Positions 472 through 25,428 of a stretch of 43,890 nucleotides of DNA are shown here, piece by piece. Origin of the DNA: Candidatus Nanoarchaeia archaeon. Its GTDB lineage: Archaea > Nanobdellota > Nanobdellia > Woesearchaeales > JAGLXL01. Positions within the stretch are counted from its first letter, which is position 1. Every line of letters begins with the position of its first letter. A program made the position numbers and the translations under genes. Location of the stretch: assembly GCA_035289325.1 (NCBI GenBank), contig DATDXM010000042.1:1-43890 (forward strand), read 5' to 3'. The notes beneath the pieces are model-generated. The model was given only the letters and a program-made list of their open reading frames with translations. It did no database searches and had not been told where the DNA came from.

Positions 472-494
472 ACCTATTAAATGGTGAGCGTTCC

Positions 495-971: not shown

Positions 972-1327
972 TTGTATTTTTCTTTCTCGTCAACGCCTGC
1001 TACTTTTTCGAGGCGCGCAATGCGCAAATCGAGATTTGTTAACAATGAACGAATTGTATCAAGCTTGCTGAGTACGAGCTCAATGTCGCGGGATGCTCCT
1101 TGCTGTGCTGGAGGCGGCATTTGCTGCTGGCCGTACTGGCCAGGATAATTTGGCTGGACATTGCGAAATGGTGAAACTGCGGGCGCCATGTTTTCCTGTG
1201 CCTGCTGCATGGGAAACTCTTCTGATTTCAGCTCGCCTAAACCAAGCTCGTCATTGAGCGGCTGATAGGACGGCTTGTCAAGACCAAGATCATCTTTTCG
1301 CCGAAGCAGCTTGTCGAGAATTTTCAT
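965..1327 (-). CDS. hypothetical protein, Q/P-rich centre and C-terminal coiled coil
   Basis: 120-aa ORF overlapping its neighbours by 4-7 nt in one minus-strand operon. No family recognised. Confidence 0.45.
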   Translation of the reverse strand: MKILDKLLRRKDDLGLDKPSYQPLNDELGLGELKSEEFPMQQAQENMAPAVSPFRNVQPNYPGQYGQQQMPPPAQQGASRDIELVLSKLDTIRSLLTNLDLRIARLEKVAGVDEKEKYKW

Positions 1328-2073
1328 GTGCCACCAATTGCGCCAACTATTTTTTCTGTGATGAACGAAGGAAGCACTTTTGCCAATTTAAATGTTATCG
1401 TTTCTGGATAAATAATAACAGCGTCAGACTTGAGACTTTTAATCAGTAATGATTGGTCCTTTGTTGATGCTTGGACAAGCTGTGCAAATAGTGTGGCACG
1501 GGCATCAGCATTGGTGGATATTTTTGATTTTTTGAGGTTATCTGCAACGTAGCCGCGCACCTGTGGCGTGTCAGGCATGTTTTGGGTTTTGATGATGATG
1601 CCCGTGAGCTGTTCGAGCGTGTTATCTGCGCGGATTGCATCTAGCAGATCATCGCCACTGAACGGCTTTGTGCTCAATTCACTGGTGATGGAATCGAGAT
1701 CAGCAAATGTTTTTGTGTCAATGATAATAAGCTTGTAGTAATTGCCACGGATGGAGTCGAGGTCGTTTTTGTTTAGGGAGGATTGGAATGATGCGACGCC
1801 TGCTGCATCAATCGCAGTTGTATCTGTTAATGAGCTCTCAAAGCCCGCGAGAATTTGTTCGTCTTTGAGAAGAAATAGTTTCTTTGCGGTTGGAAAATTT
1901 TGCACAATGTCCGTGATATCAGTAAACAAGTTAAACCCGAAGACAGTGCCGAACAATGCGAGTGCGAGGAAGACGAGCAACGCCCATGCTGCAATCTTCT
2001 TAATGCCTTTGAATAAAAAAACGATAACAAGGAGTGATACAATCGCGGCTACTATTATATAGTTGAATTGCAT
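1324..2073 (-). CDS. hypothetical membrane-anchored protein
   Basis: 249-aa ORF with two N-terminal hydrophobic helices (IIVAAIVSLLVIVFLF, WALLVFLALALFGTVFGF). It overlaps the downstream ORF by 4 nt. Confidence 0.5.
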   Translation of the reverse strand: MQFNYIIVAAIVSLLVIVFLFKGIKKIAAWALLVFLALALFGTVFGFNLFTDITDIVQNFPTAKKLFLLKDEQILAGFESSLTDTTAIDAAGVASFQSSLNKNDLDSIRGNYYKLIIIDTKTFADLDSITSELSTKPFSGDDLLDAIRADNTLEQLTGIIIKTQNMPDTPQVRGYVADNLKKSKISTNADARATLFAQLVQASTKDQSLLIKSLKSDAVIIYPETITFKLAKVLPSFITEKIVGAIGGT

Positions 2074-2128
2074 AGAGGAATGATTATTTTATGGTTTATA
2101 TAGGTTGGGGTTTGTTCAGAATGAAACA

Positions 2129-2506
2129 CTACTTTTCCAGCAATACTGCATTAACAACGCCATCCTGGCCAGGTCGAGAGGTGACACGCGCACGGCCTTT
2201 TTCTGTTTCAATGATGCTGCCTTTTGTGATGATATTTCTGCGCGCTAAGAATTTGTTTGCTGGATTTTCAACAACATTGAGAATCTTTGCTTTTGCGACT
2301 TTGCCTGCTGCGGCAACATTTGCGATGTTTGCTGCAAGCAGCCTGTTCTTGATGCTGCCGCCGCGGACACGCACTTGTTTCAAATGTGTTTCACCGAGAA
2401 GTGTGTTTGACGGATGGCGCGCCAACTCAAACTTGCGCTTTGTCCTGTAGGGCTTATGATATCTGCCGCCGGACGGCTTACGCTTTGGACGCCATTGTGA
2501 TTGCAT
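2129..2506 (-). CDS. rps8e: 30S ribosomal protein S8e
   Basis: N-terminus [32 protein letters not shown] is typical of S8e, and the length is 125 aa. Confidence 0.9.
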
Positions 2507-2530
2507 GAGCGGGTGAAGAAAGGAGTTGGT

Positions 2531-2956
2531 TTATAAAGATTGCGGATAATGTTTATCGACAGTACTCCAGAGCTCTTTCGGGAGAAATGGCTTTGCTATA
2601 ACGCCCTGGACACGACCATCTGCAAGCAACTGGTTATAAAGTGCTGCTTCAGCTCGACTGAGGCTTGGAATGCCGCCCGTTACAAAGTAGATTGGGCATG
2701 TTGATTTTGGGTGTTCACGCCGTATTGTTTCTGCGAGCACAACACCATTCATATTAGGCATTTCAACGTCAGTAAAAAGAATATCAATACCACCATTTGT
2801 CTGTTGTGCGCCTTGAAACATGGTTAGTGCTTCTGCTCCGTCTGCCGCCAGCTTTACTGCGTATCGGGCATCACTAAATATTCGCCCTAACGTCCTTCGT
2901 AGATAATCTTTGTCTTCTGCAACAAGCACTTTTATTGGTTTTGATTCCATCTTCAC
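2531..2956 (-). CDS. response regulator receiver-domain protein (CheY-like, stand-alone)
   Basis: KVLVAEDKDYLR ... DILFTDVEMPNMNG ... IAKPF match the acidic pocket, phospho-acceptor Asp and conserved Lys layout. Confidence 0.8.
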   Translation of the reverse strand: MKMESKPIKVLVAEDKDYLRRTLGRIFSDARYAVKLAADGAEALTMFQGAQQTNGGIDILFTDVEMPNMNGVVLAETIRREHPKSTCPIYFVTGGIPSLSRAEAALYNQLLADGRVQGVIAKPFLPKELWSTVDKHYPQSL

Positions 2957-3067
2957 CGTTCAGTGACACTTGTTTATAAAGATGTCGGTTTGGTTGTGCT
3001 TTTCAGGCTATCTTGCAGCTGTGCTGGAAATCGTAAGTATTATATACCAACCATATTTCTTGCGCTT

Positions 3068-3298
3068 ATGATCGAAGAAAGCTCACGCCCATTGGATGCG
3101 CTGAACGAAGCGCGCAATCGAAGAGTCATCGTTGACTGCAAGAATGGAAAGCAGTATGTCGGCAAATTGAACGCATTTGACATTCACATTAACACAGTTT
3201 TACACGACGCAGAAGAGCGTGCTGACGGCGAGATGAAAAGGAAGTTAGGCAAAATTTTTATCCGCGGCGACACAATCATAACAATTTCTCCAGAATAG
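3068..3298 (+). CDS. Sm-like (LSm) archaeal protein
   Basis: [44 protein letters not shown] ... [11 protein letters not shown] match the Sm1/Sm2 motifs. I start at the ATG at 3068 (TATA-like GTATTATATACC at 3037-3048) rather than the track start at 2963. Confidence 0.8.
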
Positions 3299-3305
3299 GT
3301 GCATC

Positions 3306-3470
3306 ATGACAAAAGGAACGCCCAGCATGGGCAAGAAAAGCGGCAAGAAGAACATGATTAGATGCAGGCGCTGCGGCAGCCGTTCTTACCACATCAGGCA
3401 TAAAGCATGCTCATCCTGTGGATTTGGCAAGAGCAAGAAATTACGTTCTTATGCTTGGCAAGTGAAGTAG
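3306..3470 (+). CDS. rpl37e: 50S ribosomal protein L37e
   Basis: Not in the ORF track (54 aa). Manual translation gives [54 protein letters not shown], with the C4 zinc ribbon typical of L37e. Confidence 0.9.
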
Positions 3471-3555
3471 GCAAATTAGTTAGAGAGTGTGCAATTGAGT
3501 CAAAGTGACACTCTTTATTAAAATAATCTTCTGTTGGTTAATGATTAAGAGATTA

Positions 3556-3700
3556 CTGCGACAACAACAATGGCGGGTGACGGTCGCGCTTCGCACGCCC
3601 TATGTCGCAACAGATTTTACCGTTGTAGGGTAAAATCTGCTGCACTCCATCACCGCCAATGTTGCCGCACGAGAACTGCCCCAGCGCCACGGAGAACAGT
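3556..3700. repeat. GC-rich hairpin element E0 (member of the E/M family, see findings)
   Basis: GC-rich island between rpl37e and the stop of 3708..4373. It has an 11-bp hairpin CAGATTTTACC/GGTAAAATCTG (3611-3639). ATGGCGGGTGACGGTCGC resembles E1 5368-5386, and GCGCCACGGAGAACA resembles E3 35892-35906 and E1 5475-5489. Confidence 0.45.
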
Positions 3701-3707
3701 ACGAGAA

Positions 3708-4373
3708 TTACACTATCGTTTCGTTTGTTTTCTTTGCCCGCCGCTCGTCTGCTATCACTTTTGTTTTTTCAAAGCAGAGCTCTTTGACTGCACCAAGCAA
3801 GAGGAAATTGCATGTTGATGGGTCGCCTATCTCGTAAATAACCTTTAATCCACACCTGTCCTGTGCAAATGGCGGCGGCAGGTTACGGCAAATTGCAAGA
3901 TCTTTCTTTGCGACTGCAACTTTTGTGTAACAGCGCTCAGTCAATGGAATACTGTTCTGGACGCCTGCGCAGACAGTTTCGTCTTCTGTATCAAGAGAAA
4001 CATCAAGGTAACAGGTATTTTTAAGCTCTTCATTGGTAACTTGTGCGCAGAGTGAAGCATCGTTGATGTTCATGCCAACTGCTTTAAAGCATACATTGCG
4101 CCAATAAGAATCTTCTATGTCCGTGCAAATTGTTGAGCTGTTTGTTGTTTCGGCGATCCCTTCGTAACAATAATATTTGCTGCCTTCGTTTTCTGCACGG
4201 TCGCATAAGTTGATGTTCTGGCGAATGATGCCTATTTCAGCGTAACAAGTATCGCGCAAATTCTGCTGGCTAAGAGCATCACATTCTGCAACGACTGCAC
4301 CAGTAAATAGGTTGATTGCAGAGCAGGATGCAGTAATGATGAGCATGCTCAGCAGAATCACAATCAATCTCAT
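3708..4373 (-). CDS. secreted Cys-rich repeat protein
   Basis: N-terminal signal-like MRLIVILLSMLIITASCSA, followed by about 8 repeats of a C-x(n)-C unit (..RDTCYAEIG.., ..KNTCYLDVS.., ..ERCYTKVA..). Confidence 0.6.
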   Translation of the reverse strand: MRLIVILLSMLIITASCSAINLFTGAVVAECDALSQQNLRDTCYAEIGIIRQNINLCDRAENEGSKYYCYEGIAETTNSSTICTDIEDSYWRNVCFKAVGMNINDASLCAQVTNEELKNTCYLDVSLDTEDETVCAGVQNSIPLTERCYTKVAVAKKDLAICRNLPPPFAQDRCGLKVIYEIGDPSTCNFLLLGAVKELCFEKTKVIADERRAKKTNETIV

Positions 4374-4592
4374 AATTCATGGAGAACGCAAGAAACTTAT
4401 ATAGGTTGCGGTGGTGGGGAAATTAAGAAGTGTCTTGGTTCATTGGATTTGTCACACCCATTGCACATTCAAATATGATAGAAGACCTAATTATTTGATC
4501 TAATTTGTTAGGTCTTTTAGTATAGGTTGCTTCCTCATGACTCTTTAAATCACACAAAAATCGAAACATTTATATAATTCCATAATATTGGA

Positions 4593-5234
4593 ATGTTTAT
4601 TCCTAAAAAGTGGAAAATGATAACAAGAAAACACACCATATTAGAGCCGTTCGCTCAAGAAGCATGGAAAAAGCATACCTTCGGAGAGGTTAAAAAGTTA
4701 TCTCATAACAAGTCAGATAACTATGTCCATACCACTCTTAAGCGCTTTGTTGCGTCAGGTGTACTTCAAGAACAAAAAATAGGCAACATCATTGTATATT
4801 CTTTGACAAGAGAACTAATCTCACTAACAACTGTTGGCTTTGTCGCTGAGCACAGGGCAAACGCAGCTAAATATCTGCCTCATAGAAATATCCAAAAACT
4901 CATCAACAAAATTAAAACTGCTTTCTATATTTTTATTGTTACCGGCAGCTATGCTAAGATGAAGCAGAAAGAGACTTCTGATCTGGATATAGTTATCATT
5001 TGCGACAACAGGCAAGAGCCTAATGCTGTTCTTTCTCAGATAAAACTAGAAGCTGAGTTGATGATCCCAGAAGCTCATCCATATGTTTTCACTCAAGAGC
5101 AATTTTATCAGATGCTTACAGCTAAAGAAGAAAACTATGGGAAAGAATTCGCGCGGAATAACTTCATAATATCGGGGGGGGAGGCGTATTATTCAATTCT
5201 TATGGAGGCAATCGAACATGGATTCAACGGCTAA
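4593..5234 (+). CDS. nucleotidyltransferase (MNT-type antitoxin-like) with N-terminal wHTH
   Basis: IFIVTGSYAKMKQKETSDLDIVIICD matches the GS-x(n)-DxD polymerase-beta-type NTase motif. The architecture matches 8877..9410. TATA TTTATATAA lies at about 4569-4577. Confidence 0.7.
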   Translation: MFIPKKWKMITRKHTILEPFAQEAWKKHTFGEVKKLSHNKSDNYVHTTLKRFVASGVLQEQKIGNIIVYSLTRELISLTTVGFVAEHRANAAKYLPHRNIQKLINKIKTAFYIFIVTGSYAKMKQKETSDLDIVIICDNRQEPNAVLSQIKLEAELMIPEAHPYVFTQEQFYQMLTAKEENYGKEFARNNFIISGGEAYYSILMEAIEHGFNG

Positions 5235-5334
5235 AATTTACTTGCAAAGAGCGCGTAATGAGTTCAGTGCTGCCCAGTTGTTATTTACAGTTTCAAATGA
5301 CCAAAAGAGAAAGCAGGATCTCCAATTAGTCTAA
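5218..5334 (+). pseudogene. HEPN-partner gene fragment (38 codons) truncated by element E1
   Basis: The ATG at 5218 overlaps the NTase 3' end, as in the intact pair 8877/9407. Translation is MDSTAKIYLQRARNEFSAAQLLFTVSNDQKRKQDLQLV*. The last codons and the stop lie inside the conserved left arm of E1 (AATTAGTCTAA). Confidence 0.5.
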
Positions 5335-5527
5335 TATCCATTCAGTCGTAAAAATAATGTCCTCCTCGATGGCGGCGGTCGGTCACATTGAGATGTGCCC
5401 TCCGCTCGGCGCTCAGAAGCTCGGCTTCTGGCGCCTCCAGAATTTGAGGATTTTCGAGGCATTCGCCTCGCTCCGCGCCATGGAGGACATTAATTTTACT
5501 CCAATATACAACCTACTTATTACGTAC
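5324..5527. repeat. GC-rich hairpin element E1
   Basis: AT-rich arms are homologous to those of E3. The closing stem is ATGTCCTCC(5358-5366)/GGAGGACAT(5482-5490). Internal hairpins include CACAT-TGAG-ATGTG, GCGCtCAGAAGC-TCG-GCTTCTGGCGC and CGAGG-CATTCG-CCTCG. Confidence 0.55.
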
Positions 5528-5540
5528 GTTTCCTCGCAAC

Positions 5541-5548
5541 ATATATAA
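5541..5548 (+). promoter_or_regulatory. TATA box for tRNA-Leu
   Basis: ATATATAA lies 25 nt upstream of tRNA position 1. Confidence 0.5.
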
Positions 5549-5573
5549 TGTACTACTAAAACATCAGGCTTAT

Positions 5574-5719
5574 GCGGGGATGCCGGAGCGGTCAAACGGG
5601 TCAGGCTTAGGTCAGCATGATGTGTGCTACTCATCGCGAGATGAGCTGGTTACCGGCGGTCGTGCTGATAGAAACCTGATGGCTTAGTGCCTTCGCAGGT
5701 TCGAATCCTGCTTCCCGCA
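5574..5719 (+). tRNA. tRNA-Leu(UAG) with 62-nt intron (5612..5673) at position 37/38
   Basis: Manual fold: acceptor GCGGGGA/TTCCCGC; anticodon stem TCAGG/CCTGA; loop CTTAGG|intron|A; long variable arm TGGCTTAGTGCCTTC; T arm GCAGG-TTCGAAT-CCTGC; discriminator A. The intron ends pair (TCAGCAtG/CGTGCTGA), consistent with a bulge-helix-bulge substrate. Confidence 0.85.
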
Positions 5720-5794
5720 TTTTTTTGAGACTGAGCGAAGCGAATGTCTCAATATTCTTTGCTCACTTTCTTTGCAAGAAAGTGCGTCTGCTTC

Positions 5795-5814
5795 AATCCT
5801 GCTTCCCGCATTTT
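5795..5814 (+). repeat. direct duplicate of the tRNA-Leu 3' end (att-like)
   Basis: AATCCTGCTTCCCGCATTTT at 5704-5723 is repeated at 5795-5814. The roughly 70 nt between contain two hairpins (GAGAC..GTCTC; CACTTTCTT-TGC-AAGAAAGTG). Confidence 0.7.
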
Positions 5815-6119
5815 CTTTTTGTGTTTTGATGAGATGAATGTTCATTGAATGTCCGCATTAAGCTTGTAAGGTTTCATCTTTTTGGTTTCTATTTTTTAGT
5901 GATGACTTTGTTAAAACTATGAAATCGATTGTTATGGGCTTTCATTGAAATATTTCGATTTGGTGAAAAAGAAGCATTACGAAAACTTTATAAATCAAAC
6001 AAAAATAGCTTTTTTTAGATATTGGAATATGTTCCTAAGGTGAGTTTGAAACGAAACCTTAAAAAAGAGGCGCATATTTCTTTGATAGTAAGTCATAAAC
6101 ACGTGGAGGTGTTTAGATA

Positions 6120-8753
6120 ATGAAAGTGGGTAAAGCAATAAAAAAGATTGTTGCGCTTGGAATTGGTGCAACCATGATGGGAGCAACTATCCTCGGAGCA
6201 ACAGCAGCTGATTTCAGCGATTATCCGAATTTCTTTTTGGACGGAGGACAGTATGATGGTGTTATCGTTGTCCGCGGCGATGCAGACTCGTTAGCAGCTG
6301 TCGATATTACGAATAATATGTTCTACGCCGGCACAGGCGCGAGCACAACGACTACGACATCCGTGCAAGGAGATGCGTGGGAAGTAAAAACAAGCTCGAA
6401 GAAGCTGGAATTGGCGAATAGCAACGTGACTCAAGCGTCCATATCAGGTGAAATGCCGCGAGATGTTAATACATTTATCGGATCGGACGAATTAAATGGT
6501 TTGAGTGACCAGACATGGAAAACAAATGAGAAGGATTTTACGTTCCAGCAATATTTGTTTTTCGACAATCTTGATGAAGCGAGCAGCATCGTGAAATATT
6601 CTGAGAACGATGATTCTGAGACAGACGTGTTCTTTTTCGTAAAGAGTGCGCGACAGATTGCTCGTTACAAAGCAGAATTTACATCAACTGCGGAGTCTGA
6701 TATTACTGATTCAGTGGGTTCTGCGGATACAACTGGAACATTCCTCGATGACTTTGAAGATACTGAGTTGCCGATGTGGGGAAAGCCATATAATGTTGTT
6801 CAAGCGAGAAGAAATAGTAACACTGGAGAAGGTGGAGCTAATATTAAGCTTGTCCTTATGTCAGGAACTGCAAAAGACACCCTCCTTGAAGGAGAATCAG
6901 GCACCTATACTGTAGAAGGCGAGGAGTATACTGTTGAGCTGAACTTTGTCGATGCAGATGAGGCAAAGTTCCTGGTAAATGGGGAACAGACAAACAAGCT
7001 CAAAGATGGTGATACCTACGTTTTGAAGGGAGGAAAAGAAGTCGGAGTGAGTGAAATCCTCTATCAGGACTATGCGGGAGGCGTCCATTCGGCAACATTT
7101 TACTTGGGTGCTGAAAAAATTGAGATGCGTGATGATGATGTAGATTTGGGACCACATTCGCATGAGTTAGTGGTAGGATCGGAAACTATTGACGGGGCAG
7201 CGGTTGTTATCTCGGGAAGTGGTGGCGATAACACAACATTTAAGATAACGACAATCGAGGTAAATATGACCGCGGAAGATGATTACTTCGTGGGAGCTGG
7301 TGAGAAGCTCAGCGATATTATTGCGGCAGCCGGTGATGAGAATCAAATGCTGTTCAATGGTGCATTTGATGTGGAATATAAAGGTCTTACTCAACCGAAA
7401 ACACATGACATTAAGCTGAGTAGCACGTCGGCTCGCAGGTACAAGTTGAAACTGTATGATGGAGATGGAAATCCAGTTGATATACCTGTTGCATATGCTG
7501 AAAGTGCAACAAACTTGAGCTTCGCTGAAGACGGGTCCAACAGTAAGAAACTATATGCGTGGGGTGAAGATTCGACGCCTCATGATACAGTAGGAGGCAG
7601 CGGAAGTAAGTATATCCAAAAAGATGATTACTTTGTCGTAACTGGTGGCACTGCGGGTGATGGCTCGGCGAAGTCGTACCTATTGCAATACAGAGGTTCA
7701 GATGCCCGAACGAAGACAAGCCCAAAGATACAGTTTAAGAACATGGGTAGTGGAGAGACACTTGAGTATGCGGTGACAACGGTGCCATCAGGTGCACTTG
7801 ATAACACAGCGGTTGCTACACTTAAGCTAGGTGGGTACTCATTTGCTGTCTTTAACAGGACAGCCCAGAATGCTGATGACTTTAGACTGATGGTGGACTT
7901 GGATGGTGGTGGAGCTATAAATCCGGGAATATCTGCAAATGGTAATACCACAATCTTTGTTGATAGCTATGGTTCGCAGTGGAGCATTGGATCCAACAGT
8001 ACCCCTTGTGATGTTTGTATTGGGGATCACTCAGTCATCGCGAATGGAACACCATTTATCATTATAAATCAGACAACACCGAATGGCGATGATTATGACA
8101 ATAAGCGACCTGCTGGTATTAATCTGGTGATAACGCCGACAACAGGACCAGAAGTGAGGGCAGCATTAGGTGGCGGTGCAGATGCACAACCAGCTTTATC
8201 TTTGCTTACGCCCGATGGTGAAACTGAAGTAGCATATGGCTGGACATCAATGGGAGTCTTTGTAAAGCAAAGTTCGCCTAGCAGTGATCCGCAGGAGTAC
8301 ATATTAACGTACCCTGAAGAGCAGCGTTTGCCTCAAGTGTTCGTCACCGCAGGTGCAGTGACATCAAAGACAGTCGCGACTGGAAGCGGATTGGATCGTG
8401 TGACGATACCGTTGACGGCAACGAAGCTGCCTGAAGAAGTGACGAATGTCAAGTCACAGCATATCATCACTATTGGTGGTCCATGTGCGAACAGCGTTAC
8501 TGCGGCAGTCATGTACACGGAGCAGGGCAAGACAGTCCCAGCGAACTGTGCAGAAGACTTCAGCGAAGGAGCAGCATTGGTTGCACTGTATGATGTCGGC
8601 GATAAAGTTGCAATGGTTGTTGCAGGTTTCAGCGGCGATGACACCAGACGAGCTGGTAAAGTGTTAGCATCACGCGCAGCAGAACTCAGTGGAACGCAAG
8701 TTACCATTGAAGGAACGACAGCAAGCAATGCGGAAATCGTCAAAGTGAAGTAA
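6120..8753 (+). CDS. S-layer / cell-surface protein
   Basis: 877 aa with signal/TM KKIVALGIGATMMGATILGATAA and an N-terminal DFSDYPNFFLDGGQYDGVIVVRGD module. The body is Thr/Ser/Gly-rich and low in Cys. The C-terminal HIITIGGPCANSVTAAV..MVVAGFSGDDTRRAGKVLA module is typical of archaeal S-layer proteins. An SD-like GGAGGTG lies 9 nt upstream. Confidence 0.7.
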   Translation: MKVGKAIKKIVALGIGATMMGATILGATAADFSDYPNFFLDGGQYDGVIVVRGDADSLAAVDITNNMFYAGTGASTTTTTSVQGDAWEVKTSSKKLELANSNVTQASISGEMPRDVNTFIGSDELNGLSDQTWKTNEKDFTFQQYLFFDNLDEASSIVKYSENDDSETDVFFFVKSARQIARYKAEFTSTAESDITDSVGSADTTGTFLDDFEDTELPMWGKPYNVVQARRNSNTGEGGANIKLVLMSGTAKDTLLEGESGTYTVEGEEYTVELNFVDADEAKFLVNGEQTNKLKDGDTYVLKGGKEVGVSEILYQDYAGGVHSATFYLGAEKIEMRDDDVDLGPHSHELVVGSETIDGAAVVISGSGGDNTTFKITTIEVNMTAEDDYFVGAGEKLSDIIAAAGDENQMLFNGAFDVEYKGLTQPKTHDIKLSSTSARRYKLKLYDGDGNPVDIPVAYAESATNLSFAEDGSNSKKLYAWGEDSTPHDTVGGSGSKYIQKDDYFVVTGGTAGDGSAKSYLLQYRGSDARTKTSPKIQFKNMGSGETLEYAVTTVPSGALDNTAVATLKLGGYSFAVFNRTAQNADDFRLMVDLDGGGAINPGISANGNTTIFVDSYGSQWSIGSNSTPCDVCIGDHSVIANGTPFIIINQTTPNGDDYDNKRPAGINLVITPTTGPEVRAALGGGADAQPALSLLTPDGETEVAYGWTSMGVFVKQSSPSSDPQEYILTYPEEQRLPQVFVTAGAVTSKTVATGSGLDRVTIPLTATKLPEEVTNVKSQHIITIGGPCANSVTAAVMYTEQGKTVPANCAEDFSEGAALVALYDVGDKVAMVVAGFSGDDTRRAGKVLASRAAELSGTQVTIEGTTASNAEIVKVK

Positions 8754-8876: not shown

Positions 8877-9410
8877 ATGAGAGCTAAAAGTATCAAGCAG
8901 ACTATCAAAGAATACTTTTTTATTAATCCTACTGCTAAACTGCGAGTAAGAGAAATAGAAAGAACAGTTAAGCTTCCTCTCCCATCTGTCATAAGGTATT
9001 GCAGGGAACTTGAAAAAGAAAATATTTTAATGACAATTGTGGTAGGTAATGTTACTTTTTATACAGCAGATAGAGGCAGCAGGAAATTTATCTTAGAAAA
9101 GAAGCTTTACAATATAAAAGAAATATATGAATCAGGGCTTGTAGAGTATCTTCGGCAGGAATTAAGCAACCCCACAATAGTTCTCTTTGGCTCTTTTGCA
9201 AAAGGAGAAGACACGGAAGAAAGTGATGTTGATTTATATATAGAAACCCCTTCGAAGAAGAAAGTGGCGCTTGAAAGATTTGAAAAAGTGTTCCAAAGAA
9301 GTATACAGGCACTTCAACATAAGGACATATTTGTGATATCGAACTTACACTTAGCAAATAACATCATCAATGGGGTAATACTGAACGGTTATATCGAGGT
9401 TTTCAAGTGA
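8877..9410 (+). CDS. nucleotidyltransferase (MNT-type) with N-terminal wHTH
   Basis: IVLFGSFAKGEDTEESDVDLYIE is the NTase motif. It overlaps the downstream HEPN gene by 4 nt. Confidence 0.75.
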   Translation: MRAKSIKQTIKEYFFINPTAKLRVREIERTVKLPLPSVIRYCRELEKENILMTIVVGNVTFYTADRGSRKFILEKKLYNIKEIYESGLVEYLRQELSNPTIVLFGSFAKGEDTEESDVDLYIETPSKKKVALERFEKVFQRSIQALQHKDIFVISNLHLANNIINGVILNGYIEVFK

Positions 9411-9817
9411 AAGAAGCAAGCTGGGAAGATTGTTTGAGACATGAATCGACTAAAGCGGGCACACCAGACATAAAACGGGCGGAATCCTTAAAAGAGACTG
9501 CTCATGAAAGGATAAGCTTAATCAAAGAAGTAACTGAAGCAAACTGTAATTTTGTATTTGAAGATTACTATACATCATTGATTGAATTGTTGCAAGCTGT
9601 AGCTTTTAAACAAGGATATAACATTTTAAATCATATTTGTTTGGGCTATTATTTACGGGATGTGATGAAAAGAGAGGGGCTTTACATATTATTTGATGAT
9701 TTAAGATATAAAAGAAATTCTCTTACTTATTACGGAAACAGAATGGATTATGAAACAGCAAAGCAGGCAATAGAAAAATGTCAAAGAATAATAAAAGAGC
9801 TAGCTAACACATTATGA
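9407..9817 (+). CDS. HEPN-domain protein (partner of the 8877 NTase)
   Basis: 136-aa all-helical ORF translationally coupled to the NTase. It contains an LRYKRNSLTYYG region. The pairing is typical of MNT-HEPN modules. Confidence 0.65.
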   Translation: MKEASWEDCLRHESTKAGTPDIKRAESLKETAHERISLIKEVTEANCNFVFEDYYTSLIELLQAVAFKQGYNILNHICLGYYLRDVMKREGLYILFDDLRYKRNSLTYYGNRMDYETAKQAIEKCQRIIKELANTL

Positions 9818-14960: not shown

Positions 14961-16340
14961 GTGGCTTGCATGGTGGATGGTCATTTTATCGGTTTAGTTC
15001 GCGATGAATTTGGACGAGTACAGAAAGTACTGTCAGATTCTGTTTATTACAGAAGCGAGCGAGGCGGGAATTATGGAGGACGCGTACGAAATCCCGGTCA
15101 ATGGTGGAGGTCAGAGAGAGTTGCACGAGTTGCTCCATTATCTGTTTCTTTGGAACAGGTTATTGATCAAAAAGTTACAGATGATTATAGGCGATTGCCT
15201 GATCACCTTAGAGAGACATTGCAGCAAGGGCTTTTGCGAACATCTGTAGAAAGAAGCACTGATTATGCTGTACTAATGAGTGTTGTTTGTGCTGATGGAA
15301 AAGTGGATGGGGGACGAACCGGCGCACTGCTCTACAGAGGAGAGCCCGTTATCGTTAACATTGATGGAAAGGAATTTGTTGTTGAAATAAAAGGGGTTGG
15401 AAGTGCTGATGGTAATAATACGCGAACTGAACCAATAGTGAGGCGCGGCTATTTTGGTATATTCAAGGAGAAATTTGGAAGCCTTGACAAAGAAGAAGGT
15501 ATGAGAGAATTAGAATGCCTTGAAGTGCAGCGAGGCTCATCTTCATTTGCTCGTGGTGATACAGTGCGTGCTGTCAGTTTGCACATATATGATAATATAG
15601 GTGATAATTATAAGCAGGCGTATCACTTGAGGCTTGCGCCAAGCACTGTTCGTGTGTCGTTCACTGGCAACCCTGCATTTCCTGAGCATGATGCACAATG
15701 TTTAGCTGAGGACATTGGACAGCAGTACGCGGAACTTGCACAGTTGGGATTTCTTCATGGTTCATTGCATGCGGAGAATGTGCTTTTTACAGGCACGCGT
15801 TATGTGATGACAGATTTTGGTGATTGCAGCAGATTAGAAGAACTCCCTGACCTGTATGATTTTTTAAGTAATACATTGAGCAGAGATAGATTCAGAGAAA
15901 TGCCTGGATTCACAAATAGACATATTGATATATTGTATGCAACGATTGCGCGGGGTTTAGGAATCTCTTATGCTTCTGAGAGAGATCTTTGGTTTATTGA
16001 TGATATCTGGTCAGGATTTTTTGCGTCGAAAGTATATGAGCTGAGAAAAGGAACGCATGTACAGGAGCATGTTGACGAAAAGAAAGCAAGTGTTCTTGAT
16101 GAGATCGAGCATGGAGACCGTGCGTGGATCGATAATAAATTACGAGTATATCCTCTTGCTTTTTTATCAAGAGAAATTCGTGTGCTCGAGCATGTTGATG
16201 CGCCAGAAGCCATTGAAAGCCTACGAATTGCACGCGAAAGGGCAGCATATCTCATGAATGCTGATGTTATAAAAGAGTTCAAAGATAATCTCGGTGCGTG
16301 GGAACAGTTGTTTTTTCTCCCGTATATGCGTTCGCGATAG
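14961..16340 (+). CDS. SelO/YdiU-like pseudokinase-fold protein (putative nucleotidyltransferase)
   Basis: FVVEIKGVGSADGNNT resembles SelO ..LKGaG.TP. LRLAPSTVRVSF resembles SelO RvAPSfiRfGsF. GFLHGSLHAENVLFTGTRYVMTDFGD resembles SelO GFvHGVmNTDNm....tIDYG. The start is GTG per the track. Assignment is from memory of SelO motifs. Confidence 0.45.
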   Translation: MACMVDGHFIGLVRDEFGRVQKVLSDSVYYRSERGGNYGGRVRNPGQWWRSERVARVAPLSVSLEQVIDQKVTDDYRRLPDHLRETLQQGLLRTSVERSTDYAVLMSVVCADGKVDGGRTGALLYRGEPVIVNIDGKEFVVEIKGVGSADGNNTRTEPIVRRGYFGIFKEKFGSLDKEEGMRELECLEVQRGSSSFARGDTVRAVSLHIYDNIGDNYKQAYHLRLAPSTVRVSFTGNPAFPEHDAQCLAEDIGQQYAELAQLGFLHGSLHAENVLFTGTRYVMTDFGDCSRLEELPDLYDFLSNTLSRDRFREMPGFTNRHIDILYATIARGLGISYASERDLWFIDDIWSGFFASKVYELRKGTHVQEHVDEKKASVLDEIEHGDRAWIDNKLRVYPLAFLSREIRVLEHVDAPEAIESLRIARERAAYLMNADVIKEFKDNLGAWEQLFFLPYMRSR

Positions 16341-16349
16341 CACACCCAC

Positions 16350-16738
16350 GCGATATTGAAAATGTCAGAAACAAGGTTTCTGAGCACGATCAGAAATCTG
16401 TGGATTTCTGACGGTTCTCGCTTAGTAATAAGCTAGTCAGCATTGCTATGCTTGACACGTACCTCGGTGCTGTCGTTCGCTCGGTCAATTTTTTTATGTG
16501 CTTTATTCACAAACACCATCAGATTAAGCTGAAGAAAATCGATTCCAACGTGCTCAGAAACTTCGTTTCTGGCACCTCGCTCACTTTGTTCGGAGGAGTC
16601 AGAACATTACCAACGCTTCGCTCAGTAAAAAGCTAGTCAGCACTGTGGTGCTCGACACGTACCTTGACAGCACACGCAAAGTTACCTTTGCTAGTCGCGT
16701 TCGGCAACTGCCTCGCGACCAACACTTTTCAATATCGC
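16350..16738. mobile_element. MITE-like element M1 (389 bp)
   Basis: The TIR is GCGATATTGAAAA(T)GT ... AC(A)CTTTTCAATATCGC. The first 125 nt differ from M2 at 3 positions, and the last 68 nt are identical to M2. The segment 16429-16483 is duplicated internally at about 16618-16672. No flanking duplication was seen. Confidence 0.6.
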
Positions 16739-16928
16739 CTCGAGGTTAGAGAATTTTTATCCAGATTCAGGGATAACGAGGGGATAAGCAATGACGAGCT
16801 TCAGGAATCTTACGAAATTAATAAGAAAGACTGTGGACTGGTGCGAGCTATTGCCCGTAGCATTATCAACCGTAATGCTCGTTCAGTTCGATAGGTTTGT
16901 CAAGAACGAGTATTACATCAGTCATAAG

Positions 16929-20377: not shown

Positions 20378-20541
20378 GGTTTTAGTATATATTTGAACTA
20401 CTTAAACATTTCTAACTGTTATTTTGGTTCTGGTGGTAAGTGTTTCGAGGGGGCACGTTTTTGCTATTTTCATGGTTCGGGGCAGAAAATAGTAAATTTT
20501 ATATTTAAACGGGTTTATTAACCATCTATTATGGTATATAA

Positions 20542-20823
20542 GATGGAGGGAGTCCGGACATAGATTCAGAACTCCAGACTAGGCTACAGAAAATAGACGT
20601 TGCTCTAGAAGAAAGTGGCTGGAAAGTCAAAAGTAGGGCGATGGTTATTGAGGAGTTAGATACTAAGTAATGACTATAATCTGTCAATCTCTCGGCATAA
20701 AGAAGTGAAACATGAGGACATTGTGTATGAAGAGCCGGAGAAATTGATTGATGCTAATATTAAGAAGCATGAAGAACTGCTGGAAGAGCTTAAAGAATTA
20801 AAAAAGATGGTATATCAAAAATA
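20542..20823 (+). pseudogene. hsdM: 3' remnant of a type I R-M methyltransferase gene (hsdM) with a frameshift
   Basis: Frame 1 reads ..SELQTRLQKIDVALEESGWKVKSRAMVIEELDTK*. Frame 2 reads ILSNDYNLSISRHKEVKHEDIVYEEPEKLIDANIKKHEELLEELKELKKMVYQK*. NDYNLSISR(Y) is the characteristic HsdM C-terminal motif. The upstream roughly 400 codons are absent. Confidence 0.55.
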
Positions 20824-20858
20824 GGAGACAGTGTCTCCTAAATGTGGGGTTTTAAAAT

Positions 20859-21134
20859 ATGGATGAACACAAAGCATTAGTTGTTTTTCAGGATAAAAAA
20901 ATAAGACGGACTTGGCATTACAATGAATGGTATTTCTCCGTTGTTGATATAGTTGAAGCGTTAACTGATAGCCCAAGGCAGTATTGGGGTGTCTTAAAAG
21001 GCAGAGAAAACCAGTTGTTAACACTTTGTTTACAACTGAAATTACCCTCTGCTGATGGTAAGTATTATGATACTGATTGCGCCAATACCAAGAATATGTT
21101 TGTTTGCCATAAAGAAACGTCAGTCAGTGACTGA
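20859..21134 (+). CDS. Bro-N/DinD-like DNA-binding domain protein, probably C-terminally truncated
   Basis: ALVVFQDKKIRRTWHYNEWYFSVVDIVEALTDSPRQYWGVLKGRENQLLTLCLQLKLPSADGKYYDTDCAN matches the N-terminal part of this family as I remember it. The tail is non-homologous. Confidence 0.4.
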   Translation: MDEHKALVVFQDKKIRRTWHYNEWYFSVVDIVEALTDSPRQYWGVLKGRENQLLTLCLQLKLPSADGKYYDTDCANTKNMFVCHKETSVSD

Positions 21135-21137
21135 CAA

Positions 21138-22193
21138 ATGAGAAAAATGGTAAATATGGAGAAAAGCAAGAAAATGAATGACAAACAATCCCAGAAACTA
21201 ATAGAAAAATTTGAAAGCCACTTCATTGAAGTAATTGAGATTATCAAGAGTTCAAGAATTACTGCTATAAAATCAGTTAATACAGAATTAATTAATCTTT
21301 ACTGGAAAATAGGCGAATATATACATCTCAAAATTGCAAATGCCGAGTGGGGTGATGGTGTAGTAAAAGAACTTGCTTCATACATTCAGGATAAATACCC
21401 CGAGATGAAAGGTTATTCTGATAAAAACATTTGGCGAATGAAACAATTCTATGATACTTATAAAGATTCAAAACTCTCGGCAGTGCTGAGAGAATTAAGC
21501 TGGACAAATAATCTATTAATCCTTTCCAAGTCAAAAACTGATAAAGAAAGGGATTTTTATATCAAATTATCTATCAAAGAGAGGTATAGTTCTCGTGAGC
21601 TAGAGAGACAAATAGACTCTGGTTATTATGAAAGAAGCATGATTTCGAGCAAAAAACTCTCATCAGTGATGAGAGAAATAAAGCCAGATTTATTAAACAC
21701 ATTTAAAGATACCTACATTTTCGATTTTTTAGATTTACCAAAGAACCATACAGAAAAAAATTTAAGACAAGCCCTCGTTGGTAGTTTTAAAGATTTTGTA
21801 CTTGAATTTGGCAAGGATTTCACGTATGTTGGAGAGGAGTATAGAGTTTCAGTTGGAAATCATGATTATTTTATTGATTTATTATTTTACCATAGGGAAC
21901 TTCAATGCCTTTTTGCTTTTGAACTTAAAATTGATGATTTCAAACCAGAATATTTGGGAAAATTAAATTTTTATCTTGAAGCTTTAGATAGGGATGTAAA
22001 GAAAAAACATGAAAACCCATCTGTTGGAGTAATATTATGCAAAAGCAAAGATAAAGAAGTAGTTGAATATGCGTTAAGCAGGAGTGCATCTCCTGCATTA
22101 ATATCTGAATATAAAACTAAACTGATACCTAAGAAAATTCTGCAAAACAAGCTGCACGAGTTGTTTATGCAAGAAGAGAAAAGGCTTACATAA
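21138..22193 (+). CDS. PDDEXK nuclease, YhcG/DUF1016 family
   Basis: YFIDLLFYHRELQCLFAFELKIDDFKPEYLGKLNFYLEAL is the D..ELK nuclease core, and the N-terminal helical region is typical of YhcG. Confidence 0.7.
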   Translation: MRKMVNMEKSKKMNDKQSQKLIEKFESHFIEVIEIIKSSRITAIKSVNTELINLYWKIGEYIHLKIANAEWGDGVVKELASYIQDKYPEMKGYSDKNIWRMKQFYDTYKDSKLSAVLRELSWTNNLLILSKSKTDKERDFYIKLSIKERYSSRELERQIDSGYYERSMISSKKLSSVMREIKPDLLNTFKDTYIFDFLDLPKNHTEKNLRQALVGSFKDFVLEFGKDFTYVGEEYRVSVGNHDYFIDLLFYHRELQCLFAFELKIDDFKPEYLGKLNFYLEALDRDVKKKHENPSVGVILCKSKDKEVVEYALSRSASPALISEYKTKLIPKKILQNKLHELFMQEEKRLT

Positions 22194-22236
22194 AAAAAGA
22201 ATTGGCAATGGGAAAGAGAAGAGGCTGTTGTGAGGA

Positions 22237-22770
22237 ATGATTACAAAACAATTTAAGCTAAGCATTGAACTGGTTCCCTCAACTATTTGGTACGCTAATA
22301 TTTACAAATATTATAGGAAATTAAACCAAATGGAGAAGTGGCATGAGCTAAAGCAGCATCTCTTTGAAACAGAAGGGAATAACTGCTGGATTTGCAATAA
22401 AAATGAGAGGAATTTGGAAGTGCATGAATTCTGGGAGTACGATGATTATAACCATATTCAAAAATTAAAAGCCATCCATCATATTTGCGATTTATGCCAC
22501 AAAATTAAGCATATTGGTTTGTGGTGCCATACTTCAGAGGGTCAAGTAAAGCTGAAAAAGCATGGGCTGACACGAGAAGCTCTGATAAACCATTTCTGTA
22601 ACGTGAACGGTTGTACTTCTGATGATTTTTTGAAGCATGAAGAGATTGCTTTTAAAAAATATTCACGAAGAAGCAAATTTCAATGGAAACAGGATTTAGG
22701 CATGTATGATCCCAAGTATGGATTAAAAGTCTTGAAAAGTCAGCAAAAATTACAGGCAATTGAAATATGA
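22237..22770 (+). CDS. uncharacterised Cys/His zinc-finger protein (HNH-like spacing)
   Basis: CWICNKNERNLEVHEFWEYDD...HHICDLCHKIKHIG shows the pattern CxxC..HE..CxxCH..H. The N-terminus reads ELVPSTIWYANIY. It is the first gene of an overlapping four-gene string. Confidence 0.5.
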   Translation: MITKQFKLSIELVPSTIWYANIYKYYRKLNQMEKWHELKQHLFETEGNNCWICNKNERNLEVHEFWEYDDYNHIQKLKAIHHICDLCHKIKHIGLWCHTSEGQVKLKKHGLTREALINHFCNVNGCTSDDFLKHEEIAFKKYSRRSKFQWKQDLGMYDPKYGLKVLKSQQKLQAIEI

Positions 22771-23105
22771 TTGATACTACACTCATAGACAAGCTTACAG
22801 AGATGGCTAACAAAGAAAAGAAGATTAAAGAGTTTAAGAAACGCCTGCGATTGAAAGGCAAGGTTGCTGCTAAAGGAACAACGAAGAAAGGAAATATTAC
22901 GCTTACTATAAGGAAAGGCAAAGATGATTTTAGGTTTACAGTATTGAAATCGCATAAAGAAAGCTTTGCATTAGCGGAGAGACTTAGTATTGGGAAGAGT
23001 GTTTCTGCTCACGGTATTCCAAAGTTCAGGATGATAATCTGCACAAAGTTGAAGGAATTGGAGAAAGGAATTGATGAAAGCAAGCAGAGAAGGTTAGAGG
23101 TTTGA
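22767..23105 (+). CDS. hypothetical basic protein
   Basis: 112 aa, Lys-rich, with 4-nt ATGA overlaps to both neighbours. Confidence 0.45.
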   Translation: MIDTTLIDKLTEMANKEKKIKEFKKRLRLKGKVAAKGTTKKGNITLTIRKGKDDFRFTVLKSHKESFALAERLSIGKSVSAHGIPKFRMIICTKLKELEKGIDESKQRRLEV

Positions 23106-23527
23106 AAATGAGTAAGATAACGCAAAATGAAAAATATTATTTTTTCCTAAATCCCTATATTGATAGCTCTTTCACACGATGCCCGAAGTGTGACAACAAG
23201 ACTAAAGTAAAAAAATTACCTCTTGCCATACTGCTGGAAAAAAAGAAAATAATATTTATGCTGAACAAAACCTGTAAATTCTGCCCCTACTGCGAGCTGA
23301 TCATAGCAAAAAAACGTGAATTAGAATTAATCATCCTGCAATTTTTAGGCGTAGAGCATATAACTGAAAAAGACTTCACGGTTATGGGGACACAAGACAA
23401 AGCAGTTTACCGTGAGGGTGTTGGTAAGGGGCTGATTAAAAAGAATCCATTAGAAGGCGTTTCCATATTTAAGAATGTGTGGCATTTTGAGGTTCAGCAT
23501 GCTTACTGGGGCGTTGATAAAAAATGA
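23102..23527 (+). CDS. hypothetical zinc-ribbon protein
   Basis: 141 aa with CPKCDNKT ... CKFCPYCE (two CxxC pairs). Confidence 0.45.
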   Translation: MKMSKITQNEKYYFFLNPYIDSSFTRCPKCDNKTKVKKLPLAILLEKKKIIFMLNKTCKFCPYCELIIAKKRELELIILQFLGVEHITEKDFTVMGTQDKAVYREGVGKGLIKKNPLEGVSIFKNVWHFEVQHAYWGVDKK

Positions 23528-23552
23528 AAGCGAAGTACTGGGGGCGATTAGA

Positions 23553-24431
23553 ATGATGATGGAACAATTTTATAATAGATTTCCTGATATGGCTGAGAAG
23601 GAAACACGATGTATAACCATTATGGGTGGAGAGGAAGGGCTTCCAAAAGGGGAATATTTTTTTTTAGAAAGCTACTGCAATGATCCAAAGTGCGATTGCC
23701 GCCGAGTTTTTATTAATGTTTTATATAAAGATAAAATTTTAGCCACCATAGGTTATGGCTGGGAGGAAGTAAAATTTTACGAACAGTGGATGGGTGAACC
23801 AGATTTGGCTCCCAATATTAAAGGTCCTATTCTAGAGCTCACTGGGCAGCATACTCAATATTCAGAAATACTTTTAGAGTTATTTAATAGGGTTATACTA
23901 AAAGACAACAAGTACATTAATCGCTTAAAGATGCATTATAAGATGTTTAAGAAAAATTCTTCTAAAAATAAAAGTGACAAACAAGATATAGAGGAAGAAT
24001 TAGAAAATTTTGATCCTAAATCATATGTAATGGCTAACTTATGCAAAGAAAATGGCACGGGCATAGAGGCCATTAATGAAACAAACCGAGAGGTATTCTA
24101 CCCCATTATAATGGCAATTGAAGAGTCCATTTGGATCAAGTATTCCAAAGATAGTTCGTTAAAGGATTCAGAAATAATTGAATCATTAAAGAATTTGAGG
24201 GACAATATATTTTCAGAGAATGCCCTTTTTAACCAATTGGAAGAGGAAATCATTACAAAATTAAAATTAGTATTATTTCTTAATCACTATGATAGACGGG
24301 ATCTGTCTTTATCCATTTCTTCTGTACTTAAGTCAGCAAAACTGCATAAATCGATGGGAGGAAGCAGAGGCTACTTAGATTTTATTTCTAGCTTTTTCAA
24401 CCAAATGGTGGGGAAAAATGAAGTCAAATAA
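23553..24431 (+). CDS. hypothetical protein with a CNDPKCDCRRVF motif
   Basis: The start is set at the MMMEQFYN ATG (23553), preceded by GGGG; the track ORF begins at 23475 inside the previous gene. It contains EYFFLESYCNDPKCDCRRVFINVL..IGYGWE. Its 3' end overlaps hsdS by 14 nt. Confidence 0.45.
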   Translation: MMMEQFYNRFPDMAEKETRCITIMGGEEGLPKGEYFFLESYCNDPKCDCRRVFINVLYKDKILATIGYGWEEVKFYEQWMGEPDLAPNIKGPILELTGQHTQYSEILLELFNRVILKDNKYINRLKMHYKMFKKNSSKNKSDKQDIEEELENFDPKSYVMANLCKENGTGIEAINETNREVFYPIIMAIEESIWIKYSKDSSLKDSEIIESLKNLRDNIFSENALFNQLEEEIITKLKLVLFLNHYDRRDLSLSISSVLKSAKLHKSMGGSRGYLDFISSFFNQMVGKNEVK

Positions 24432-25245
24432 TACTAATTGGGAATGGAAAAAGTTAGGGGAAATATGTCTTAGTAAAGCTCAATATGGTTCTGGTGCTAG
24501 AAAAATAGATTTTGATGATAAAGTCAGGTACATCAGAATTACCGATATTGATGATGGAGGTAACCTAAAAAATGATGAATTTGTATCTCCCTCTATTATC
24601 GAGAATGACTGCTTTTTAGAAAAAGATGATTTACTTTTTGCACGCTCTGGCTCGGTGGGTAGAACCTATCTCCATTCGAAAAATGATCTAAAATACCAAT
24701 TTGCTGGCTATCTAATCAGATTTAAAATAAATCCTAAGATTGCAGATGCAAGATATGTTTTTTATGTAACAAAATCAAAATATTATTTAGGCTGGGTTGA
24801 ATCTTTGAAAAGAAATGTAACAATATCAAACATTAATGCGAAAGAGTATTCCTCATTTGAGCTACCCGTCCCCCCTCTTCCCATCCAACAAAAAATAGTC
24901 TCAATACTTGAACAAGCAGAAAGTCTCAAACAAAAACGAGAGCAGGCAAATGAAGAGGCAAATAAAATTATTCAAAGTGTGTTTTATAAGATGTTTGGGG
25001 ATGTTGAGAATCACAAAGTAAAATCTTTCCTAGATGTTTTTGATGTAACCACCGGAAAACTAGATTCGAATGCCGCAGAGCCCGACGGAAAGTATCCATT
25101 TTTTACATGTTCACGGGAAACATTTAAGATAAATTCCTATGATTTTGATTGTGAAGCATTGTTATTAGCGGGAAATAACGCTGCGGCAAAGTATTCTGTT
25201 AAATATTATTCTGGAAAATTTAACCATTGGAGTGAACCCCATTAA
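24418..25245 (+). pseudogene. hsdS: type I R-M specificity subunit (hsdS), truncated in the second target-recognition domain
   Basis: TRD1 is followed by the central conserved helix LPPLPIQQKIVSILEQAESLKQKREQANEEANKIIQSVFYKMFG and the start of TRD2 (KYPFFTCS..). It ends at 275 aa, where the family continues for more than 100 further residues. Confidence 0.65.
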
Positions 25246-25428
25246 GTGGACACAAAGTTAAGATATACCGAAATAAAAAATGGTGAGGTGTGTACGATGG
25301 GTTTGGAAAAGTTTGAAAAAGAGATGAATGCGGATTGAACTTCATCCTCATAACAGATGTCTACAAAAGACAACGAGCGATTAGCGCGACAACAACATAT
25401 ATAAACATACACTCAAATATATCCACTC

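Follow-up and report, generated by a model that had tools for sequence, protein, structure and literature searches.

Guard proteins of the PrrC/RloC type sit in type I restriction-modification (R-M) loci and fire when the R-M complex is inhibited. A survey of embedding hotspots in BREX, DISARM, and type I R-M operons recorded 17,432 non-redundant genes from 3,231 families in 3,568 cassette combinations, and more than half of the embedded families had no assigned function (Payne et al., bioRxiv 10.1101/2024.01.29.577857). The PDC candidates of PADLOC, PDC-S02 and PDC-S13 among them, were derived from this set of embedded genes (bioRxiv 10.1101/2024.01.29.577857), and TgvAB is an experimentally proven case embedded in a type I operon (bioRxiv 10.1101/2024.04.04.588119). 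We analyzed a 43,890-nucleotide stretch of DNA from a Candidatus Nanoarchaeia archaeon (contig DATDXM010000042.1, positions 1 to 43,890), hereafter called the window, in which four small genes, here termed g1 to g4, lie between remnants of hsdM and hsdS. An earlier note on this DNA had presented them as one translationally coupled, four-component nucleic-acid-targeting system. Our results indicate that the block probably consists of cargo genes that are independent of one another and occupy a known embedding hotspot between hsdM and hsdS, and that it is not one new four-part system.

Related loci were gathered by exact-protein look-ups, a scan of species genomes with g1, a scan of metagenomes with g3, and viral scans; 235 loci were fetched and searched by tblastn, for which the proteins of the window and the HsdM, HsdR, and HsdS of two loci served as queries. 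Besides the window, none of these 235 loci contained all four genes, and subsets of g1 to g4 were found in at least 8 different architectures. The closest relative, with a g1 that is 97% identical, reads g1-g2-g3-hsdS with a full hsdS and lacks g4 (L011/L095). Two other close loci lack g1, namely L096 (hsdM-PDC-S13-g2-g3-g4-hsdS, with a PDC-S13 gene of 276 amino acids [aa]) and L097 (hsdR-hsdM-YhcG-218aa-g2-g3-g4). L098/L099 combine g3 and the N-domain of g4 with g2-PDC-S13 further along, L100 and L103 hold g3-g4, and L111 holds the g4 N-domain and g3 in reverse order. The arrangement hsdM-g4-hsdS-MNT-HEPN-72aa-g2-hsdR was found in L007 to L010, and g3 occurred in hsdR-141aa-hsdM-YhcG-g3-hsdS (L019), AlbA_2/HATPase_c_4-166aa-g3-hsdS (L017), and hsdM-AlbA_2-g3-hsdS (L107). 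The remaining combinations were AlbA_2-g1-DUF6155-g2 (L015), g1-g2 followed by the contig end (L022), g1 alone (L013), and g4 among other small genes without R-M (L001 and L004).

Neighbors were counted in loci flanked on each side by 1.5 kb or more, and this set includes a few duplicate contigs. At 45% identity or more to g3, 14 loci were available, with a type I R-M gene in 6, g4 in 5, g2 in 3, and g1 in none; among 27 loci with more distant g3 homologs, a type I R-M gene and g4 were each found once and neither g2 nor g1 was found. Thus, g4 was present in 6 of the 41 flanked g3 loci. The 52 loci anchored on g1 in species genomes contained a type I R-M gene in 6 cases, g4 in 1 case (an N-domain homolog), and g2 in 1 case. 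Clustering of the neighboring open reading frames (ORFs) revealed no universal neighbor of g1 or g3, only clade-specific synteny, and g1 had no constant neighbor in its 74 species loci. The divergence of adjacent genes was also discordant and did not reflect one shared evolutionary history of g1 to g4: nucleotide identity to L096 was 75% for g2 and 93% for g3, and that to L011 was 98% for g1 and 89% for g2. Therefore, the genes were exchanged separately by recombination.

The earlier note had stated that its proposal would fall if the four families did not co-occur elsewhere, and since they do not occur as a set, the four-component claim fails on its own terms. Tight co-directional packing, an ATGA overlap of g1 with g2, a 14-nt overlap of g4 with hsdS, metal-binding motifs in three of the proteins, and the lack of an internal terminator-like site on the + strand all speak for such a system. 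Set against these features, the closest relatives hold three of the genes in different combinations, g1 keeps no fixed company, neighboring genes differ in their nucleotide identities, and there is likely no overlap at g2/g3 and none at g3/g4. By its distribution, the four-component system is largely refuted, and we regard it as very unlikely.

The type I R-M setting itself, as already described in the earlier note, was borne out. Intact operons of this type contain homologs of all four genes: g4 in L007 to L010; g3 in L019, L096, and L106; g2 in L007 and L096; and g1 in L025 and L030, in the order hsdS-g1-hsdR. The ratio of nonsynonymous to synonymous substitutions (dN/dS) relative to close relatives was 0.04 to 0.14 for g2, about 0.2 (up to 0.22) for g3, and 0.09 to 0.14 for g4. 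With values of 0.04 to 0.22, these are real genes, and g2 to g4 are under purifying selection; the g1 relative, at 98% nucleotide identity, is too close for its ratio to be judged. In addition, the claim that no described defense system has this composition held: the 5,027 models of PADLOC-DB v2.0.0 gave nothing for g2 to g4 and, for g1, only RmrA at noise level (E 0.016). The g2, g3, and g4 families were likewise absent from Pfam and NCBIfam.

We propose that the variable hsdM-hsdS gap of a type I R-M operon of the Woesearchaeota type has collected three or more cargo units that assort separately (g1; g2 with g3; and g4), together with the YhcG/PDC-S02 and PDC-S13 genes. Deletions have since gutted the host operon and left the cargo genes intact under purifying selection; the window shows such a locus at a late stage, and the cargo genes are probably still read as one transcript. 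Each unit would be an independent accessory gene of the conflict or defense type that uses the R-M operon for its expression and spread. The most probable roles are those of a standalone HNH nuclease (g1), two basic nucleic-acid binders (g2 and g3), and a zinc-containing, two-domain, adaptor-like protein (g4). This arrangement resembles that of the embedded genes described by Payne et al., of TgvAB, and of PrrC, in that the genes lie between hsdM and hsdS, are co-directional and probably co-transcribed, and vary in cassette content between related operons; moreover, the neighboring YhcG (PDC-S02) and PDC-S13 genes are listed candidates. It differs in that none of the PADLOC models describes g1 to g4, in its DPANN hosts, and in the inactivation of the host operon in the window.

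Several observations weigh against this interpretation. The g2, g3, and g4 families are each rare yet co-located in four distinct places (the window, L096, L097, and L098/L099), and the adjacency of g3 and g4 recurs at 49 to 57% identity (L098, L100, L103, and L111). Some of these three genes may therefore be functionally linked. Most g1 homologs and most distant g3 homologs, as far as the few tblastn queries could tell, are not near recognizable defense genes; the defense association of distant homologs is probably undercounted because neighbors were detected by tblastn with a handful of queries. Furthermore, the HNH call for g1 derives from the PHROG annotation and inspection of its motifs, with no match to Pfam HNH, and what connects the four genes to defense is solely their genomic association.

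Part of this evidence would suit another explanation, in which g3 and g4, possibly with g2, form a lineage-specific accessory module serving the type I R-M enzymes of DPANN archaea, with two folds that lack a solved analog. Such a module might regulate, assist, or tune HsdS, or it might guard the R-M complex in the manner of PrrC, firing upon its inhibition or acting as a back-up effector once it is disabled. Either g3 or g4 lies directly upstream of hsdS and overlaps its start in the window, L007, L011/L095, L017, L019, L096, and L107, and the two genes are adjacent, in the order g3-g4, in the window, L096, L097, L098/L099, L100, and L103. We consider this module unlikely, although it keeps some weight because the overlap with the hsdS start is frequent and the three rare families meet in four loci. 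Indeed, g4 occurs without g3 in L001, L004, and L007, 35 of the 41 flanked g3 loci lack g4, and relatives of the g4 N-domain are found in unrelated contexts. No R-M genes were among the annotated neighbors of g3 on Nostoc plasmids, hhalign detected no relationship between g3 and g4, and the genes of the window persist under purifying selection though their R-M partner has been destroyed. The likeness to PrrC/RloC guards consists of the position inside an R-M operon and a possible functional dependence on the R-M complex; g1 to g4 differ from these guards in having no ATPase or anticodon-nuclease domain and no similarity in sequence or fold, and in surviving here without an R-M partner. If the module were real, g3 would also define a broad new defense-associated zinc-ribbon family that spans archaea and cyanobacterial plasmids.

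We then return to the reading of g1 to g4 as independent cargo and to the state of its host operon (Table 1). In addition to the hsdM and hsdS remnants that the earlier note had reported on either side of the four genes, we found an hsdR remnant that it had not noticed. The hsdM remnant frame ends in NDYNLSISRHKEVKHEDIVYEEPEKLIDANIKKHEELLEELKELKKMVYQK and a stop codon, as in the intact HsdM of L096/L097. The hsdS fragment comprises the first target-recognition domain, the central repeat, and the start of the second domain; it matched Pfam Methylase_S as a single domain (3.5e-19) and is shorter than its intact relatives of 376 to 404 aa. The rest of hsdR and other copies of hsdM, hsdS, or hsdR were not found within the 43.9-kb window, so the locus lacks a complete hsdM-hsdS-hsdR set. 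The hsdR remnant joins the hsdM remnant directly, and therefore at least one deletion removed nearly all of hsdR and hsdM. Every cargo gene downstream of this deletion keeps an open frame. As the R-M operon is wrecked, this locus at present encodes no functional type I enzyme on which g1 to g4 could rely.

Table 1. Features of the decayed type I R-M locus in the window
Feature	Positions	Strand	Remarks
hsdR N-terminal remnant, ~40 codons	20548..20667	+	97.5% identical (tblastn) to the HsdR of L019 (944 aa), residues 7-46
hsdM C-terminal remnant, ~55 codons	20660..20824	+	82-88% to residues 443-476 of the 493-aa HsdM of L097/L019
Palindromic junction element AAAATAGGAGACAGTGTCTCCTAAATG	20818..20844	.	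conserved in related loci
PDC-S13 fragment	20859..21134	+	PADLOC match and comparison with L096
YhcG/DUF1016 PD-(D/E)XK protein, full length, PADLOC candidate PDC-S02	21138..22193	+	Pfam, PADLOC
g1, 177 aa, standalone HNH-annotated Cys/His protein, PHROG 5200 family	22237..22770	+	
g2, 112 aa, rare Lys-rich small protein, putative OB fold	22767..23105	+	
g3, four-Cys zinc-ribbon protein	23108..23527	+	alternative TTG start 23102 (141 aa)
g4, 292 aa, two-domain protein	23553..24431	+	
hsdS fragment, 275 aa	24418..25245	+	

The four co-directional + strand frames were confirmed. Tight packing extends beyond them, to an array of seven genes that runs from the PDC-S13 fragment via YhcG to the hsdS fragment, and the four-gene boundary is therefore arbitrary. 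The ATGA overlaps had been described for the first three genes. Such an overlap exists between g1 and g2 (22767-22770), but the g2/g3 junction reads TTGA, with the g2 stop TGA (23103-23105) lying over the TTG at 23102; because 139-aa g3 homologs begin at the position of ATG 23108, a gap of 2 nt likely separates g2 from g3. Another 25 nt lie between g3 and g4, and the 14-nt overlap of g4 with the hsdS fragment (24418-24431) was found as described. Hence, translational coupling is plausible only at g1/g2 and g4/hsdS. Purine runs resembling Shine-Dalgarno motifs precede g1, g3, g4, and hsdS, and no terminator-like hairpin was found on the + strand inside the array, which makes co-transcription of the array plausible. 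A sigma-70 promoter scan gave only background-level matches, this consensus not being applicable to an archaeon.

The two genes upstream of g1 also bear marks of rearrangement. The PDC-S13 fragment matched positions 1 to 89 of the 286 of its PADLOC model (E 5e-26) and is 92% identical to residues 1 to 83 of the full 276-aa gene of L096, followed by a divergent tail. The likeness to L096 stops at about 21101-21106; a hairpin, CGTCAGTCAGTGACTGACA (21118-21136), and then the YhcG start follow. The segment 21107-21137 thus looks like a breakpoint at which the YhcG cassette replaced the rest of PDC-S13. The YhcG protein itself matched Pfam YhcG_C (9.8e-55), DUF1016_N (3.3e-42), and PADLOC PDC-S02 (1.8e-129).

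A palindrome of ~25 to 27 nt, AAAATGGGAGACAGTGTCTCCTAAATG, is found at cassette junctions in four loci: in the window (Table 1), in L019 (6838-6862, between hsdM and YhcG), in L096 (1410-1434, between hsdM and PDC-S13), and in L097 (3422-3446, between YhcG and the 218-aa gene). It follows hsdM in three of the four, and the L097 copy has unrelated flanks. This element might mark a site of recombination or a cassette boundary, or it might serve as an operator or as a hairpin terminator. A conserved palindrome at cassette junctions is also what one might see if the genes were selfish cargo without a defense role, with g1 as a mobile or homing-type HNH gene and the small basic proteins as addiction, regulatory, or neutral hitch-hikers. 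Members of the g1 family abound in phages and are found as scattered single genes in genomes, 5 of 35 g3 members show weak matches to the zinc ribbon of the MqsA antitoxin, and relatives of the g4 N-domain are surrounded by arrays of unrelated small genes. We nevertheless judge purely selfish cargo to be decidedly unlikely: g2 to g4 are under purifying selection, the genes recur inside intact defense operons, g3 also lies beside defense-type genes on cyanobacterial plasmids, and the island contains no transposase or integrase gene and no flanking direct repeats or att sites other than short chance matches.

The earlier note had alternatively considered a phage-derived fragment. The island (~20400-25300) has a lower G+C content than the rest of the window (34.3% versus 42.5%), and the g1 family is common in phages, being present in 54 IMG/VR contigs, jumbo phages included, and in 119 phage records of GenBank, with the annotation HNH endonuclease in several. 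In contrast, g2, g3, and g4 had no relatives in 2.9 million IMG/VR contigs, and g4 had no match among PLSDB plasmids; an exception is g3, copies of which occur on four Nostoc plasmids. Structural and replication genes were also absent from the island, as were integrases. Since its low G+C content matches that of related R-M loci on other DPANN contigs (32 to 39%), the whole R-M island, and not a virus, is likely the transferred unit. Insertion of a virus or provirus fragment into the R-M locus is thus extremely improbable, and the suggestion is unsupported for g2 to g4.

Under the favored interpretation, that of separate cargo genes, each protein has to be considered individually. The Cys/His metal-binding signatures ascribed to three of the four proteins were present, and all quoted motifs were found in g1, g3, and g4. 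In g1, these are C50WIC53, LEVH63EFW, and C84DLCHKIKH92. The protein aligned over residues 5 to 158, nearly its full length, with phrog_5200, annotated as "HNH endonuclease" (E 1.6e-20), and C50-x2-C53, H63-E64, Q75, and C84-x2-C87-H88-x2-K91-H92 were invariant in 40 homologs. By inspection, we assigned H63 as the conserved catalytic His after the first strand, H88/H92 as the metal-binding His in the helix, and C50/C53 and C84/C87 as the two CxxC pairs, a pattern that would correspond to the layout of a zinc-stabilized ββα-metal nuclease, and g1 may be such an HNH-type nuclease acting alone. At the canonical HNH Asn position, the g1 family apparently has the invariant Gln75. The phage proteins of PHROG 5200 align with g1 almost end to end and share the CxxC...H-E...CxxCHxxxH pattern, but g1 is only 27 to 39% identical to the viral members. 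Pfam HNH (PF01844) did not match g1, failing to reach E 0.1; Endonuclease_7 weakly matched 3 of the 40 members (E 0.03), and a g1 profile search of the PDB weakly recovered IcmJ/DotN as the best match (E 0.017) and ZRANB3 HNH (E 0.81). Sequence searches of the PDB with g1 and g4 gave nothing usable. The family has at least 237 homologs, some named HNH endonuclease by NCBI, and a profile scan of 185,579 species genomes found it in 74, with DPANN, Asgard, Bathyarchaeia, Chloroflexota, and others as hosts.

The second protein is small and Lys-rich, as had been noted (19.6% Lys, isoelectric point [pI] 10.2). g2 matched the Pfam tRNA_anti-codon oligonucleotide/oligosaccharide-binding (OB) fold PF01336 at E 2e-4 and 21.7 bits, below the cut-off of 27, and a similar weak match was obtained for 11 of 21 family members. 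A profile search of the PDB gave the anticodon-binding domain of asparaginyl-tRNA synthetase as a weak match (E 0.16). By these profile matches g2 is weakly OB-like, with a putative OB fold, and the basic g2 would be a nucleic-acid binder, not an enzyme. The family is tiny: of 1.84 billion cluster representatives, 43 belong to it. Several loci (L015 7434-7922, L007 8494-8712, L108, L138, and L036) encode, immediately before g2 or g3, a DUF6155-like protein or a 72-aa form that corresponds to its C-terminal part, and this gene appears to belong to the common pool of shuffled cargo genes.

g3 carries two Cys pairs, C27PKC30 and C61PYC64, and all four Cys are invariant across homologs. Many Lys are also conserved, no acidic residue is, and the pI is 9.4; this zinc ribbon, too, would be a basic nucleic-acid binder and not an enzyme. 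The AlphaFold2 model (predicted local distance difference test [pLDDT] of 81.5) had no significant fold match in the PDB, the best being the zinc ribbon of a serine integrase (E 0.11). Comparison with Lar-like restriction-alleviation proteins and MqsA-like antitoxins yielded matches at the level of the zinc ribbon only (E 0.06 to 0.3), and PDB matches to CTCF zinc fingers reflected Cys spacing only. g3 and the g4 N-domain, both of which have YFFL...Cys motifs, are not homologs by hhalign (probability 0.4%). A profile scan of metagenomes found more than 300 relatives of g3. The family is otherwise mostly confined to DPANN and metagenomes, and an unexpected reach is seen in copies of 48% identity on four Nostoc megaplasmids (L234 and L235 among these loci), including Nostoc PCC 7120 pCC7120alpha (16291-16749; L234); on these plasmids, a GIY-YIG nuclease gene adjoins g3 and DpdE, AIPR, thermonuclease, and DUF1186 genes lie nearby.

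g4 consists of a Cys-cluster N-domain (residues 1 to 135), with the motif EYFFLESYCNDPKCDCRRVF at residues 34 to 53, and a helical C-domain (residues ~150 to 292). A longer ORF (318 aa) exists, with its ATG at 23475 within the 3' end of g3, and some database homologs are called at ~309 to 310 aa; the short form is preferred because conservation begins only at MMME (23553). The protein has 74 homologs. In the N-domain, C42, C47, D48, C49, H128, and Y129 are nearly invariant, and W70, D118, and F132 are invariant. The N-domain recurs in DPANN, Bacteroidota, and Planctomycetota fused to a SEC-C motif, which takes the place of the helical C-domain, and the C-domain recurs behind other zinc-finger N-termini. 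These SEC-C proteins resemble the first ~135 residues of g4 at 35 to 57% identity and share its C-x4-C-x-C cluster, W70, D118, and H128-Y129, whereas g4 has a helical domain of ~140 residues instead of the SEC-C motif. We infer that C42, C47, C49, and probably H128 may form a structural zinc site in a partner- or ligand-recognition domain, which would be joined to an interchangeable helical output domain.

The AlphaFold2 model of g4 (pLDDT 94.1) had no significant structural match in the PDB or BFVD. Top Foldseek matches in the PDB were SAUGI-type inhibitors of uracil-DNA glycosylase, but at E 0.5 and a template modeling (TM) score of ~0.25 they were not significant, and a role of g4 as a DNA mimic was rejected. 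No BLASTP similarity linked g4 to DUF1186, which is found near g3 in Nostoc. Matches of the C-domain to the Imm6 immunity protein (E 0.04 to 0.2 over 40 to 50 residues in 5 of 43 members) were at noise level and were not used. In one DPANN contig (L231 to L233, ~120-7700), a homolog with the g4 N-domain and SEC-C lies in a dense two-strand array of small genes, which includes a 195-aa protein with a weak HNH match, a SWIM protein, and a DUF6429 protein and adjoins a giant Amidase_2/fn3/PA14 protein of 2,120 aa.

Elsewhere in the window, the ORFs upstream of the island look, by eye, like ribosomal L44e-, S27e-, eIF2-alpha-, and Nop10-like proteins, and we take the surroundings to be archaeal; a PAC2 protein (Pfam) is encoded downstream. 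An MNT-type nucleotidyltransferase gene (NTP_transf_2, 8877-9410) overlaps by 4 nt a 136-aa ORF (9407-9817) that had no Pfam match, and this layout recalls the MNT-HEPN pairs embedded in the related R-M locus L007.

Altogether, the attractive claim of a four-component system does not hold, and the locus leaves a handful of candidate single genes, not a new mechanism. Time and again, genes found inside type I R-M operons have proved to be defense systems, and most nested families remain unassigned. Related loci show how cassettes are exchanged between hsdM and hsdS, with a conserved palindrome as a possible exchange site. To the nested genes, this locus adds three families, g2, g3, and g4, two of which (g3 and g4) have confident predicted folds without solved analogs, and it does so in DPANN hosts, in which defense against viruses is poorly known.

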